Assembly: GCA_030612885.1 (NCBI GenBank)
Contig: JAUWMZ010000004.1
Coordinates: 17,631 to 81,630, forward strand
From: Candidatus Nealsonbacteria bacterium
GTDB taxonomy: Bacteria > Patescibacteriota > Minisyncoccia > Minisyncoccales > JAGMDC01
DNA length: 64,000 nucleotides
Direction: 5' to 3'
Shown here: positions 217 to 62,253 of the stretch, one piece after another
Layout of the letters: the number at the start of each line of letters is the position of its first letter
How positions within the stretch are numbered: the first letter of the stretch is position 1
Program-made: the position numbers and the translations under genes
The notes under the pieces: generated by a model
What the model saw: the letters and a program-made list of their open reading frames with translations, nothing else
Databases searched by the model: none
Told to the model about the DNA's origin: nothing

Positions 217-648
217 ATGCCGAGACATATTATTATATTTGGTATTACAGCTATCATTATTACGGTTATTGCCGGCTATTTAATTTATACAAACCAAAAT
301 CCAAACGATCATAACGGAGCTGATTTAGAAACGCTTGTTTTAGACAAAGAAGGGGGGATAGATTTAGACGCTTGTTTGGAGAGAGGTCTTGCTGATAAAA
401 TTATAGTTTTAGAATCAGAATATTGCAGCGCTTGTAAAATTGTTGTTCCCAGACTACAAGAGATTGAAAGAGAATTAGGGAAGGAAATTATTTATTTAGA
501 TTTGTCTAAAGAAAATGATCAGAATAGGGCTAAAGAATTTAAAATTTGGCCTAAATGGACGCCTACTGTTTTAATAAGTTGTGATGTTTTTATTGGCGCT
601 TATTCTAAAGAAAAATATAAAGAAGCAATAGAAAATTTAAGTTATTAA
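217..648 (+). CDS. membrane-anchored thioredoxin-like protein (CxxC)
   Basis: N-terminal TM helix IIIFGITAIIITVIAGYLIY followed by Trx-like domain with CSAC motif (SEYCSACKIVVPRL). Confidence 0.6.
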   Translation: MPRHIIIFGITAIIITVIAGYLIYTNQNPNDHNGADLETLVLDKEGGIDLDACLERGLADKIIVLESEYCSACKIVVPRLQEIERELGKEIIYLDLSKENDQNRAKEFKIWPKWTPTVLISCDVFIGAYSKEKYKEAIENLSY

Positions 649-658
649 AAATTAAGGT

Positions 659-1522
659 ATGGAAAAAAGTAAAATTATCATTGCTCTTTTGATTATTATA
701 GGACTGATAGGTCTTTTTTTCTTAGCTAAACAGGCCTCGCCAGAAACCTTCAAAGAGCTCGGTTTAAATTTGTCTTTACCCTGGTTTACTTTTATTATTG
801 CTATTATTGATGGTTTTAATCCCTGTACTTTATGGGTTTTGACTTTTTTGCTCGTTTTACTAATTTCTGTGTCTGAAACCCCCGAAGCAGAGCAAGCTCG
901 CTACGGGGCAGGCAGAAAAAGGATATTTATTGTTGGTTTAACTTTTGTATCAGTTATTTTTATTGTTTATTTTATGTTTATGACTGCCTGGTTAAATATA
1001 TTTCGTTATATAGGATTCATTGATCCATTAAGAATAATGATTGCCAGTGTAGCTTTGATTGCTGGAGCGATTAATTGCAAGGAGTTTTTCGCTTTTAGAA
1101 AAGGTATAACTTTAATGATACAAGAAAAACATAAACCTCTTTTAATGCAAAAGATAGAAAAAATGAAAGAGGTTATAAGATACGGCTCTCTGCCAGCCCT
1201 AATCACAGCTTCTGTTATACTGGCCTTGTTTTCTTCTTTGGTGGAGCTGCCTTGTACTGCTGGCTGGCCTATAATTTATACAGGTGTATTATCAGCAAAA
1301 GTTTTTGAAGGAACTATTTCTTTTTATATTTATTTATTGTTTTATAATCTTATTTACATCATACCTCTTAGCGCAGTGATATTATTATTTGGCTGGTTTT
1401 TCAAAGGTAAGAAAATTAGCAAAGAGCAAACACAAATAATAAAACTTATTGGCGGAGTAATAATGATTGCTCTGGGAATAATTTTATTAGTCAATCCAGG
1501 ATTATTAATGCTAATGGAGTAA
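659..1522 (+). CDS. CcdA/DsbD-like thiol-disulfide membrane electron transporter
   Basis: Polytopic membrane ORF with two Cys-in-TM motifs (GFNPCTLWVL, ELPCTAGWP); adjacent to two Trx-fold genes. Confidence 0.55.
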   Translation: MEKSKIIIALLIIIGLIGLFFLAKQASPETFKELGLNLSLPWFTFIIAIIDGFNPCTLWVLTFLLVLLISVSETPEAEQARYGAGRKRIFIVGLTFVSVIFIVYFMFMTAWLNIFRYIGFIDPLRIMIASVALIAGAINCKEFFAFRKGITLMIQEKHKPLLMQKIEKMKEVIRYGSLPALITASVILALFSSLVELPCTAGWPIIYTGVLSAKVFEGTISFYIYLLFYNLIYIIPLSAVILLFGWFFKGKKISKEQTQIIKLIGGVIMIALGIILLVNPGLLMLME

Positions 1523-6693: not shown

Positions 6694-7347
6694 TTATTGA
6701 TTAAACTCTGCCATTGCTTTTTCTATGCCTTGTTTTGCCGCCATTTCAATTGCTTGGTAGGTTTTTTCAATTACTTCTTTTAAGATTTTACTTTCTTCTT
6801 TTGAAAATTTTTGAAGAACGAACCCCGCACCAGAAACTTTGTTTCGGTGCGGGACTAGTCCAGCACCGAGCTTTGCTCTGGTGCTGGGTTTTTCTGTATT
6901 CTGTATTCTGTATTCTTGGTTTTTGATTCCTATTCGGAAGCGGACAAAGTTTTTTGTGCCGAGTTCGTCAATAATTGATTGAACTCCTTTGTGTCCGGCT
7001 GAACCGCGATTTTGAACAATTTTCATTTTTCCCAATGGTAAATCCAAATCATCGTGAACCACCAATAAATTGACGAGAAATGTTCTCGTCAATTTAATCA
7101 ATGATAAATTATTAATGATTATTTTGACTGCTTTGCCTGATTCATTCATAAAGGTTTGTGGCTTGGCCAAGATTATCTTTTTGCCATCCATAATACCTTC
7201 TGAAATTTCTGCCTTGAATTTCTTTTTTAATTGCCAATCAGAAAAACCGTGAATTTTCTGAAATTCATCTAAGGCCATAAATCCGACATTGTGCCGAGTT
7301 TTTTGATATTTTTGGCCGGGATTACCTAAACTTACTATAAGAATCAT
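6694..7347 (-). CDS. pth: peptidyl-tRNA hydrolase, with an in-frame palindromic/tandem-repeat segment near the C-terminus
   Basis: MILIVSLGNPGQKYQKTRHNVGF..., VVHDDLDLPLGK, RFRIGI ... FVLQKF; unusual segment encoded by 6824-6913. Confidence 0.9.
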   Translation of the reverse strand: MILIVSLGNPGQKYQKTRHNVGFMALDEFQKIHGFSDWQLKKKFKAEISEGIMDGKKIILAKPQTFMNESGKAVKIIINNLSLIKLTRTFLVNLLVVHDDLDLPLGKMKIVQNRGSAGHKGVQSIIDELGTKNFVRFRIGIKNQEYRIQNTEKPSTRAKLGAGLVPHRNKVSGAGFVLQKFSKEESKILKEVIEKTYQAIEMAAKQGIEKAMAEFNQ

Positions 7348-7369
7348 TATTTTATTATAGCACCCCTTG

Positions 7370-7448
7370 CCCCGTAGTGAAAATTTGACTTATTTCATAA
7401 ATTAAAGTTTTCTGAAAGAAAACTTTTTGTCAAATTTCTACTACGGGG
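7370..7448. mobile_element. 79-bp MITE-like hairpin element with CCCCG termini, flanked by CTTG direct repeat
   Basis: Arms ccccgtagtgaaaatttgac / gtcaaatttctactacgggg (18/20 complementary); inner hairpin aaagttttc-tgaa-agaaaacttt; CTTG at 7366-7369 and 7449-7452. Confidence 0.6.
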
Positions 7449-7486
7449 CTTGTAAAAATAAAAAAACTTGCTAAAATAGAATAAGT

Positions 7487-61602: not shown

Positions 61603-61803
61603 TTATACTAAAGACGACAACACATAGTTTCCGCAAATCTGACCTATGCTTATGCCTGTGCCTGTGCAAGGTTTTTCTGAATTAACATTCAGAATCTTTC
61701 CTTGCTTTTCTAAAGAAAGTAGCTCTTCTTTAATGCCTTTTTTACTTAGTTTTTCCAGTTTAGCCATTACTTCCAAAATTTCTTTTTCTGTTTCCGAACC
61801 CAT
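61603..61803 (-). CDS. small hypothetical protein (66 aa) with strong Shine-Dalgarno site
   Basis: AAGGAGGTGAT 8 nt upstream of ATG 61803; helical N-half, C-terminal PCTGTGISIGQICGNYVLSSLV; own terminator. The 151-aa ORF-track version is over-extended. Confidence 0.5.
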   Translation of the reverse strand: MGSETEKEILEVMAKLEKLSKKGIKEELLSLEKQGKILNVNSEKPCTGTGISIGQICGNYVLSSLV

Positions 61804-62047
61804 TTTCATCACCTCCTTTTTTTTCATTCTTTCTTTCATACCCTTCACAATACCGAGTATCGTGCAGAATTGGTATATTATATAATTTACATCTTCCGCC
61901 AAAACTATACTTGCAACTATAACATAATACGGCCATTTTTTTTCATTTCCTTTTTCTTTTTTATTCCACTCAATTTTCAAGGTGCGAGACCTATCATTTA
62001 ATTGTATATCCTTTCTACCAAACCAGACAAAAAAGTCAACATCTTGA

Positions 62048-62215
62048 CCCCGCACCAATTTTGCGTTCCGATTTGCACTTTACTTACAATAATAACAAAA
62101 ATAAGTTAAACTTCCGCGGCACACTTAACACGAATAGTGTTGTCCGCCTTTGGCGGACTGGGCTATTCGCCCTTCGTGTGCCGCTAATGAACTCTATGGC
62201 AAAATTGGTGCGGGG
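62048..62215. mobile_element. 168-bp MITE-like element: 17-bp perfect terminal inverted repeats, TTGA target duplication, internal four-way junction
   Basis: ccccgcaccaattttgc (62048-64) / gcaaaattggtgcgggg (62199-215); TTGA at 62044-47 and 62216-19; inner stems 62116-24/62176-84, 62127-41, 62142-58, 62160-72. Confidence 0.7.
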
Positions 62216-62244
62216 TTGATTATTTTTTAAAGTGATGATATATT
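62216..62244 (+). promoter_or_regulatory. putative rpsB promoter (TTGATT-17-TATATT)
   Basis: The -35 overlaps the right TTGA flank of the MITE; the -10 ends 9 nt before ATG 62254 (near-leaderless). Confidence 0.4.
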
Positions 62245-62253
62245 AAAGCTATT

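Follow-up and report, generated by a model that had tools for sequence, protein, structure and literature searches.

The 64-kb window analysed here (the whole stretch of 64,000 nucleotides presented above) contains rpsB, the gene for ribosomal protein S2, and upstream of it a 168-bp block which is bounded by terminal inverted repeats (TIRs) and flanked by TTGA on both sides. S2 homologues place the host in Parcubacteria/Minisyncoccales, and the order of genes around the block is kept in relatives: an SLT-domain protein, prfB(-), rpmE(-), a small open reading frame (ORF) (-), rpsB(+) and tsf(+). On either side of the block is a promoter-like site, the two standing back to back: TTGACT on the minus strand, and TTGATT-17-TATATT in front of rpsB. 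The sole ORF inside the block is an unsupported 52-codon TTG ORF. We consider it very likely that positions 62048-62215 are a non-autonomous, TIR-bounded mobile element, i.e. a MITE (miniature inverted-repeat transposable element), which inserted into the TTGA of the rpsB -35 box and duplicated these 4 bp. This MITE belongs to a large, apparently undescribed family of the candidate phyla radiation (CPR, or Patescibacteria). Its parts, and the related features discussed below, are collected in Table 1; fetched loci are designated by L numbers.

Table 1. Parts of the element at rpsB, neighbouring features and related elements (positions in the window unless a locus is named).
Feature	Position	Strand	Basis or remark
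Left TTGA, target-site duplication copy	62044-62047		sequence; single TTGA at orthologous L006, L003 and L007 sites
Left TIR, CCCCGCACCAATTTTGC, 17 bp	62048-62064		inverted-repeat search, pattern search
A+T-rich spacer, 51 nt, on one side of the core only	62065-62115		comparison of copies
Four-way-junction core	62116-62184		repeat and pattern search, covariation in 10 subfamily copies
Closing stem, 9 bp, GCGGCACAC / GTGTGCCGC	62116-62124 / 62176-62184		sequence
Hairpin AACAC-GAATA-GTGTT, loop GAATA	62127-62141		sequence
Hairpin GTCCGCC-TTT-GGCGGAC, loop TTT	62142-62158		sequence
Hairpin GGGC-TATTC-GCCC, loop TATTC	62160-62172		sequence
Linker, 14 nt, core to right TIR	62185-62198		12-14 nt in nearly all family members
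Right TIR, GCAAAATTGGTGCGGGG	62199-62215		inverted-repeat search, pattern search
Right TTGA, duplication copy; first 4 bases of the rpsB -35 hexamer	62216-62219		sequence, promoter scan, alignment
Predicted rpsB promoter (TTGATT-17 nt-TATATT; the -10 is preceded by TG; predicted transcription start near 62251)	62216-62244	+	scan; alignment with L006, L003 and L007
rpsB, ribosomal protein S2, PF00318	62254-63066	+	gene downstream of the insertion
Divergent -35-like TTGACT, promoter of the small minus-strand ORF	62031-62036	-	promoter scan; 8 bp from the insertion site
Second superfamily element, 79-bp palindrome CCCCGTAGTGAAAATTTGAC...GTCAAATTTCTACTACGGGG, CTTG/CTTG flanks	7370-7448 (7366-7452 with flanks)		
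Neighbouring hairpins (two, ~30 nt each) whose ends are arm-like, CCCCGCACC...GGTGCGGG and CCAGCACC...GGTGCTGG, in frame in pth	6823-6888		
Three separate palindromic insertions around the rpsB promoter	L010:4535-5000		
GIY-YIG units	L107:6155-6439; L252:1183-1462; L262:1206-1487; L272:845-1128, 1141-1435; L282:570-852; L292:~590-853		

A reading of this DNA made from the letters alone (the sequence-only reading) had described the block as a 168-bp MITE-like insertion with perfect 17-bp TIRs between two TTGA copies, enclosing a 9-bp stem and three hairpins, and all of these parts are indeed present. The repeat search recovered arms at 62047-62064 and 62199-62216, 18 nt long, 100% complementary and 134 nt apart, corresponding to the 17-bp TIR plus one A/T pair. 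When up to 3 mismatches are allowed, the TIR occurs at just these two places in the window (expected 0.04), and the pattern of the inner 9-bp stem was found neither elsewhere in the window nor in 100 shuffles. The right TIR together with its flank reads ATG GCA AAA TTG GTG CGG GGT TGA. The sequence of the site is identical in two further assemblies of the same strain, L001 (SRR12623518) and L002 (ERZ4219663). On the minus strand, an ORF at 61603-62058, called at 150/151 aa, begins within the left TIR; it consists of the conserved small ORF (~60-69 aa in relatives) fused to its upstream region, and its start is probably an annotation artefact of the insertion. Palindromic elements of this kind would be a source of mis-called ORFs, of which this 150-aa call is an example.

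Comparison with relatives demonstrates that the block is a real and recent insertion. In L006 (GCA_023131895.1), whose S2 is 86% identical and whose gene order is unchanged, the orthologous region aligns contiguously to window positions 61937-62047 and 62216-62253 by BLAST and alignment, with one shared TTGA and nothing between. L003 and L007 likewise show a single TTGA before the same conserved promoter and no element, and an ancient leader common to all relatives, which the sequence-only reading had named as a possible refutation, is not upheld by these three genomes. In L010 (S2 91% identical), a different, 96-bp palindromic element occupies the same TTGA (TTGA/CCCCCACACCA...TGGTGTGGGGG/TTGA, its ends also written CCCCCACACCATAACAAGGAC...GTCCTTGTTTGGTGTGGGGG), a second palindromic insertion interrupts the divergent -35 box at its TCAA, which is duplicated, and a third element of 238 bp lies at the rpsB start codon between TATG/TATG flanks, where the duplication keeps the ATG in place. 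At least two independent insertions mark the TTGA at rpsB as a hot spot.

As TTGATT-17-TATATT is also found in the empty-site relatives, the rpsB promoter is older than the insertion. The duplicated TTGA again precedes the rest of the hexamer; the promoter was therefore rebuilt and the insertion tolerated. The earlier proposal that the right TTGA forms part of the rpsB -35 box stands, while the suggestion that the insertion created or displaced this promoter does not. Most likely, the window copy does little beyond swapping the DNA upstream of the -35 box. A cis-regulatory leader of rpsB (S2) is unlikely, the element being upstream of the predicted -35 box and absent from L003, L006 and L007.

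The element folds with -79.3 kcal/mol on the plus strand as compared to -41.6 +/- 4.0 kcal/mol for shuffled sequences (z = -9.4), and the minus strand is equally distinct from its shuffles (z = -10.0). The four-way junction with complementary hairpin loops proposed earlier is supported in part only: the minimum-free-energy fold contains no cloverleaf, joining the loops CGAAUAG/CUAUUCG in one long helix, whereas covariation across the family supports separate hairpins. In an alignment of ten subfamily copies (A4), 96.5% of cells pair in the proposed helices against 35-44% in slid controls, and 13 pairs changed on both sides, which none of 500 shuffles matched. The core helices thus covary among copies, as the sequence-only reading had suggested should be looked for; in A4 it is the hairpins and arms which supply this evidence, the closing stem being preset by the search pattern. 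Covariation cannot tell RNA from folded DNA. In the arms, G-U and A-C mismatches number 5 versus 18, a small count confounded by bulges. The conserved core structure and segment lengths could reflect recognition of folded DNA, or an RNA role once the element is transcribed. No match to the element was found in Rfam at gathering thresholds, and at E<=10 only spurious microRNA and small nucleolar RNA matches far below threshold appeared, so that the known RNA which might have explained the structure was not encountered. ARAGORN and the Rfam tRNA model detected no tRNA or tmRNA at 62044-62219, and a tRNA-like element was rejected on these empty searches and on the 9-bp closing stem and the 5-nt and 3-nt loops, none of them tRNA-like.

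The search for further copies advised by the same reading revealed a widespread family. Scanning representative genomes, one per species, we found at least 119 stretches with the TIR 17-mer; some 60 of those listed are inverted pairs with arms 100-250 bp apart, and nearly all two-armed copies listed come from Patescibacteria. Hosts include Saccharibacteria, Parcubacteria/Paceibacterota and Yanofsky-, Sungii-, Kaiser-, Giovannoni- and Doudnabacteria, and single metagenome-assembled genomes hold up to 9 or more copies among the matches listed. Oriented alike, the copies share one architecture: an arm, a 12-14-nt linker, the 9-bp stem, hairpins with a conserved CTATTCG loop, a segment of ~50 nt and the second arm, with a bulged base on the same arm in about half of them. 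The 9-bp stem covaries from copy to copy (GCGAAGCGC/GCGCTTCGC, GCGAGCCGC/GCGGCTCGC, GCGACGCGC/GCGCGTCGC, GCAATGCCC/GGGCATTGC; GCGGCACAC/GTGTGCCGC in the window). The ~50-nt segment before the second arm is unrelated in sequence between copies: its length is kept family-wide, its sequence within the close subfamily only. Viral contigs contained two matches to the 17-mer alone, both apparently random, and none to the paired-end patterns of the arm family and of the GIY-YIG element described below.

The arms also surround unrelated interiors on a few contigs from Planctomycetota and Gammaproteobacteria: exact inverted pairs of the 17-mer occur in L028, L032, L036 and L084, in Pirellulales, Gammaproteobacteria, Phycisphaerales and Sedimentisphaerales bins. 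They are due either to horizontal spread outside CPR or to binning errors. In Saccharibacteria, arm elements are found directly upstream of rpmA, rpsN, groEL and dnaK (L021, L034, L072, L088 and L129). These are nested in a larger palindrome which holds one degenerate direct and one inverted copy of the start-codon region (...ATGGCA / TGC(T)CAT...) and could allow alternative pairings hiding the true start codon.

The window copy belongs to a Parcubacteria subfamily characterised by a length of ~168 bp, the 17-bp TIR and the four-way core. Metagenomes scanned for the closing stem of 9 bp yielded 120 stretches, 8 of which are true members (the 112 chance matches were discarded); together with L113, L075 and L070, these give 11 independent copies. 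Perfect direct repeats of 4-5 bp flank 10 of the 11: TTGA in six (L070, L138, L144, L151, L199 and, as CTTGA, L075), TCAA in three (the window copy, L142 and L224) and TTTA in one (L133). We then scored the reconstructed target sites, requiring at least 5/6 matches to the -35 consensus and at least 4/6 to the -10 consensus. A promoter-like site was found at 8 of the 11 insertions as compared to 118 of 2075 TTGA sites (5.7%) in the same loci, and TTGAC occurs at 8 of the 9 TTGA-type sites versus a background of 13%. In L070, for example, the site reads TTGACA then TATAAT, and in L075 TTGACA then TAGAAT. The subfamily is almost confined to the TTGA(C/A) of sigma-70-type -35 boxes, a strong association. 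An element which lands on TTGACA and rebuilds it has found a safe landing site, and one so sited could mark promoters in organisms for which promoter data are lacking.

The arm family is part of a superfamily, widespread in Patescibacteria, of palindromic elements with 5'-CCCC...GGGG-3' ends and 4-bp (sometimes 5-bp) duplications. Small palindromes of this type are common in the same loci; the 4-mers matching on their two sides vary (CTTG, TCAA, TTGA, TATG), and the empty sites have one copy. The window itself holds a second such element, the 79-bp palindrome at 7370-7448, between pth and the next gene and just upstream of a promoter-like TTGTAA...TAAAAT; its sister copy at L010:7001-7077 has a TTGA duplication, and L001 and L007 have empty sites. 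MITEs with TIR CCCCGTTAGAAGTC in L109, L142 and L224 show duplications TTGA, TGAA, TTCA and TGAA. The sequence-only reading had also pointed out that the terminal accccgcacca recurs inside pth (6822-6832), the peptidyl-tRNA hydrolase gene (6694-7347, minus strand). This is not chance: a small palindromic insertion with ends of this type, part of the in-frame hairpin pair of Table 1, terminates in that sequence, and solved Pth structures lack an equivalent of Pth residues ~146-174.

In other loci, the arms bracket whole tRNA genes: L090:1918-2185 (minus strand), L101:2421-2640, L007:6773-6950 and L079:2707-2828. In L090, the arm element interrupts a tRNA-Ser(UGA) gene at the anticodon loop, which contains TTGA, and brings with it an identical tRNA-Ser that is intact; tRNA-Met in L101 is arranged likewise, and the arms in L007 break up a tRNA-like gene and carry tRNA-Thr. 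These elements seem to replace the tRNA gene which they disrupt. Elsewhere, an unrelated metagenome contig retrieved by chance contains a repeat array with a 69-bp period (L209:9093-12640, CCCCGAGAAAATACTT...), probably a CRISPR array or tandem repeat.

A candidate for the mobilising enzyme emerged from sibling elements. These GIY-YIG units measure ~270-295 bp and consist of 12-21-bp inverted repeats (CCC(C)G...) around a single ORF of 84-93 aa. The unit of L107, 285 bp long and bounded by TIR CCCCGTTAGAAGCC, contains nothing but a GIY-YIG ORF of 86 aa, homologues of which are 70-84% identical across several CPR phyla. The GIY-YIG domain (PF01541) was found on all matches, i.e. on the sibling ORFs and not on the window element; among solved structures, UPF0213 protein BH0048 (1ZG2, E=9e-4) is the nearest, and a group I intron endonuclease model is matched weakly. 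Flanked by the same TIR, these homologues stand in unrelated contexts. One separates an aldolase gene from rplY (L252); others lie in a toxin-antitoxin island (L262, with TGAA duplicated), within a diversity-generating retroelement (L272, TAAA duplication), after a peptidoglycan-binding protein gene (L282, TAAA duplication) and between abiEi and abiEii (L292), the 4-bp direct repeats of L262, L272 and L282 being perfect. In the retroelement (L272:118-2323 and sister loci L273-L281), two GIY-YIG elements in tandem separate bAvd/reverse transcriptase from the target gene, which has an Lcl_C domain.

The TIRs of these units are fitted closely to the gene. From the left TIR to the start codon there are 0-31 nt, and at most 5 nt in 5 of 7 copies (in L262, the called ORF begins just upstream of the TIR), while the right TIR forms the last codons of the ORF, the flank sometimes supplying the stop. 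Of the 9 GIY-YIG genes examined, 7 have their TIR pair to themselves, with no other gene in between. A sibling TIR family, CCCCGTTAGAA, has both autonomous (GIY-YIG) and miniature forms; MITEs with TIR CCCCGTTAGAAG, identical to that of GIY-YIG units, have TTGA/TGAA/TTCA duplications, and some of them share contigs with arm elements (L109, L142, L224). A second GIY-YIG clade has arm-like ends (L272: ACCCGCCCAAATTTTTGGATT...), and a GIY-YIG gene lies less than 100 nt from an arm element in 3 of ~65 CPR loci.

In the mechanism which we propose, a trans-acting enzyme would recognise the CCCC-type ends and cut the target with a stagger. Insertion is into the TTGA which opens a -35 hexamer, and the 4-bp duplication restores that hexamer. 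That the enzyme is the 84-93-aa GIY-YIG (UPF0213/YhbQ/Slx1-like) nuclease, acting in trans, we rate as an even chance, its link to the window's subfamily being indirect. More tentatively, and with slightly less confidence than in the enzyme, we suggest that the window element may be a miniature of an unrecognised transposon class, with a ~270-295-bp autonomous form encoding a bare GIY-YIG domain and with miniatures aimed at -35 boxes and also at tRNA genes, in which those copies with a replacement tRNA would survive.

Several observations weigh against these proposals, some of them against the MITE assignment itself. The window contains one subfamily copy in all its 64 kb, and the -35 bias could arise from survivorship instead of targeting. 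Copies of the larger subfamily with a three-way core (from Saccharibacteria and others) mostly lack direct repeats in the 4-mers beside their arms, and three-way copies within one genome (L012-L129) have like arms and cores and unrelated spacers of 45-54 nt; such equal-length, unrelated spacers, unlike those of ordinary young MITEs, hint at selection on the folded form or at a more complex origin. In L125, the exact arm 17-mer stands 1 nt before a GIY-YIG start codon and its right partner is absent, the fetched loci yielded no autonomous element with both arm-type TIRs, and the C-terminus ...KLVRG, the translation of the arm TIR, occurs in 0 of 240 retrieved GIY-YIG homologues. GIY-YIG enzymes are not known as transposases nor as makers of 4-bp duplications, and our literature search found no report of GIY-YIG elements with TIRs and duplications nor of a GIY-YIG transposase. 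A MITE moved by a conventional DDE-type transposase with 4-bp staggered cuts, with the GIY-YIG ORFs as passengers, would fit the general experience that TIRs plus a fixed-length duplication are the classical DDE footprint (known insertion sequence (IS) families with 4-bp duplications include the IS5 group, IS701 and IS1380), as well as the lack of an arm-type element combining a GIY-YIG ORF with both TIRs and the L101 GIY-YIG ORF, which has no TIRs. However, in 1.67 Mb of fetched DNA no transposase-like ORF was found between CCCC...GGGG ends, partner CCCC/GGGG arms 0.5-5 kb apart returning noise and neighbouring small elements only, and the layout of the 7 sole-gene GIY-YIG units, with TIRs at start and stop, is that of an element's own gene and not of cargo. 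We regard the DDE explanation as unlikely, albeit one to be taken seriously.

Less probable still is a structured RNA selected by the host (an S2 autoregulatory rpsB leader, a small RNA, or a processing or terminator stem) whose spread would be secondary. The very stable fold, the compensatory changes which keep the helices, the whole tRNA genes between arms, and, in the wider family, the co-orientation with the upstream gene (28 copies against 12) and a T-rich 3' flank resembling an intrinsic terminator tail are all consistent with it. But the orthologous rpsB loci of L003, L006 and L007 do without the element; at rpsB, it is upstream of the predicted -35 box and therefore outside the transcript; Rfam is empty; many copies lie in unrelated contexts with target duplications; and the mismatch count in the arms, itself weak, points to the strand opposite to that required by a terminator. 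As to a chance palindrome or assembly artefact, the origin of the window in a metagenome assembly is all that speaks for it, whereas the sequence is identical in two independent assemblies (L001, L002), shuffles never reach the fold energy or the repeats, and homologous copies exist in many genomes; we consider its probability negligible. A MITE in the rpsB -35 box is the explanation which we retain.

These results bear on how CPR genomes are perceived. CPR/Patescibacteria have tiny, streamlined genomes which are usually thought to be poor in transposable elements, and our literature search found no paper linking MITEs to them. A superfamily of palindromes placed in promoters, in coding regions and in tRNA genes would account for a major component of CPR intergenic DNA that annotation has missed. 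If GIY-YIG proteins do mobilise it, this would be a new transposition chemistry in a unit of <300 bp. Such units would rank with the smallest known autonomous mobile elements and would be the first transposons with TIRs and target-site duplications to be driven by a GIY-YIG enzyme.

Slx1, a structure-selective nuclease, is grouped with YhbQ/YazA (the UPF0213 group) (PMC7017083). The sibling ORFs resemble GIY-YIG homing endonucleases (I-TevI, the phage T4 Seg proteins) in their domain, small size, selfish appearance and proximity to tRNA genes. Homing endonuclease genes, however, have separate DNA-binding domains and spread by cutting the empty allele followed by repair, with neither inverted repeats nor duplication, whereas the sibling units, at 84-93 aa, encode essentially the bare catalytic domain and have 12-21-bp TIRs and 4-bp duplications at unrelated sites. 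Spread as homing genes was rejected for the GIY-YIG units, given their TIRs and their TGAA, TAAA and TAAA duplications in unrelated contexts. In CPR rRNA genes, there are reports of GIY-YIG-encoding insertions which belong to neither group I nor group II introns, together with many ORF-less insertions <200 bp at stem-loops (PMC11270868). No TIRs, duplications or MITE relationship are described there. These insertions may be the same kind of element, and, if GIY-YIG proteins act as proposed, GIY-YIG elements may explain both the non-intron GIY-YIG and the short rRNA insertions.

Other small elements were compared and set aside. REP/BIME (repetitive extragenic palindromes and the mosaic elements built from them), mobilised by RAYT (Y1), are described (PMC3733652) as palindromes of 20-40 bp which bear a GTAG/CGTC tag, left unpaired, and make no duplication. 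A REP/RAYT origin was rejected given the 168-bp length, the duplication and the empty site; GTAG in sibling families lies in a paired TIR. IS200/IS605-type elements, which make no duplication and have a fixed flanking tetranucleotide, were dropped because the matching 4-mers vary and empty sites have one copy, and integron attC sites were dropped on the same single-copy empty sites and on differing 4-mers matching on both sides. Rickettsia palindromic elements (RPE) are alike in being palindromes in frame within coding genes, as in the window's pth. They differ in sequence and host group and in having no demonstrated logic of TIRs and target-site duplication and no partner enzyme; the rpsB copy, moreover, is intergenic.

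Similar in layout are the bacterial MITEs and palindromic repeats Correia/NEMIS (Neisseria), ERIC/IRU (enterobacteria), RUP (Streptococcus pneumoniae) and Nezha (cyanobacteria): ~80-250 bp with no ORF, TIRs and a short duplication, an intergenic position near promoters or gene ends, the potential to form a hairpin over the whole length, and larger variants arising by nested insertion. Ends of the CCCCGCACCAATTTTGC type together with a 4-bp TTGA duplication are apparently not known from any of these. The element at rpsB represents an apparently new family of a known kind, the MITE, with unusual properties, and points to a possibly new autonomous kind. Unlike the MITEs above, the present family has a covarying multi-hairpin junction, segments conserved in length and free in sequence, -35 hexamer sites (in the subfamily), a range across CPR phyla, and a sibling GIY-YIG protein rather than a DDE transposase.

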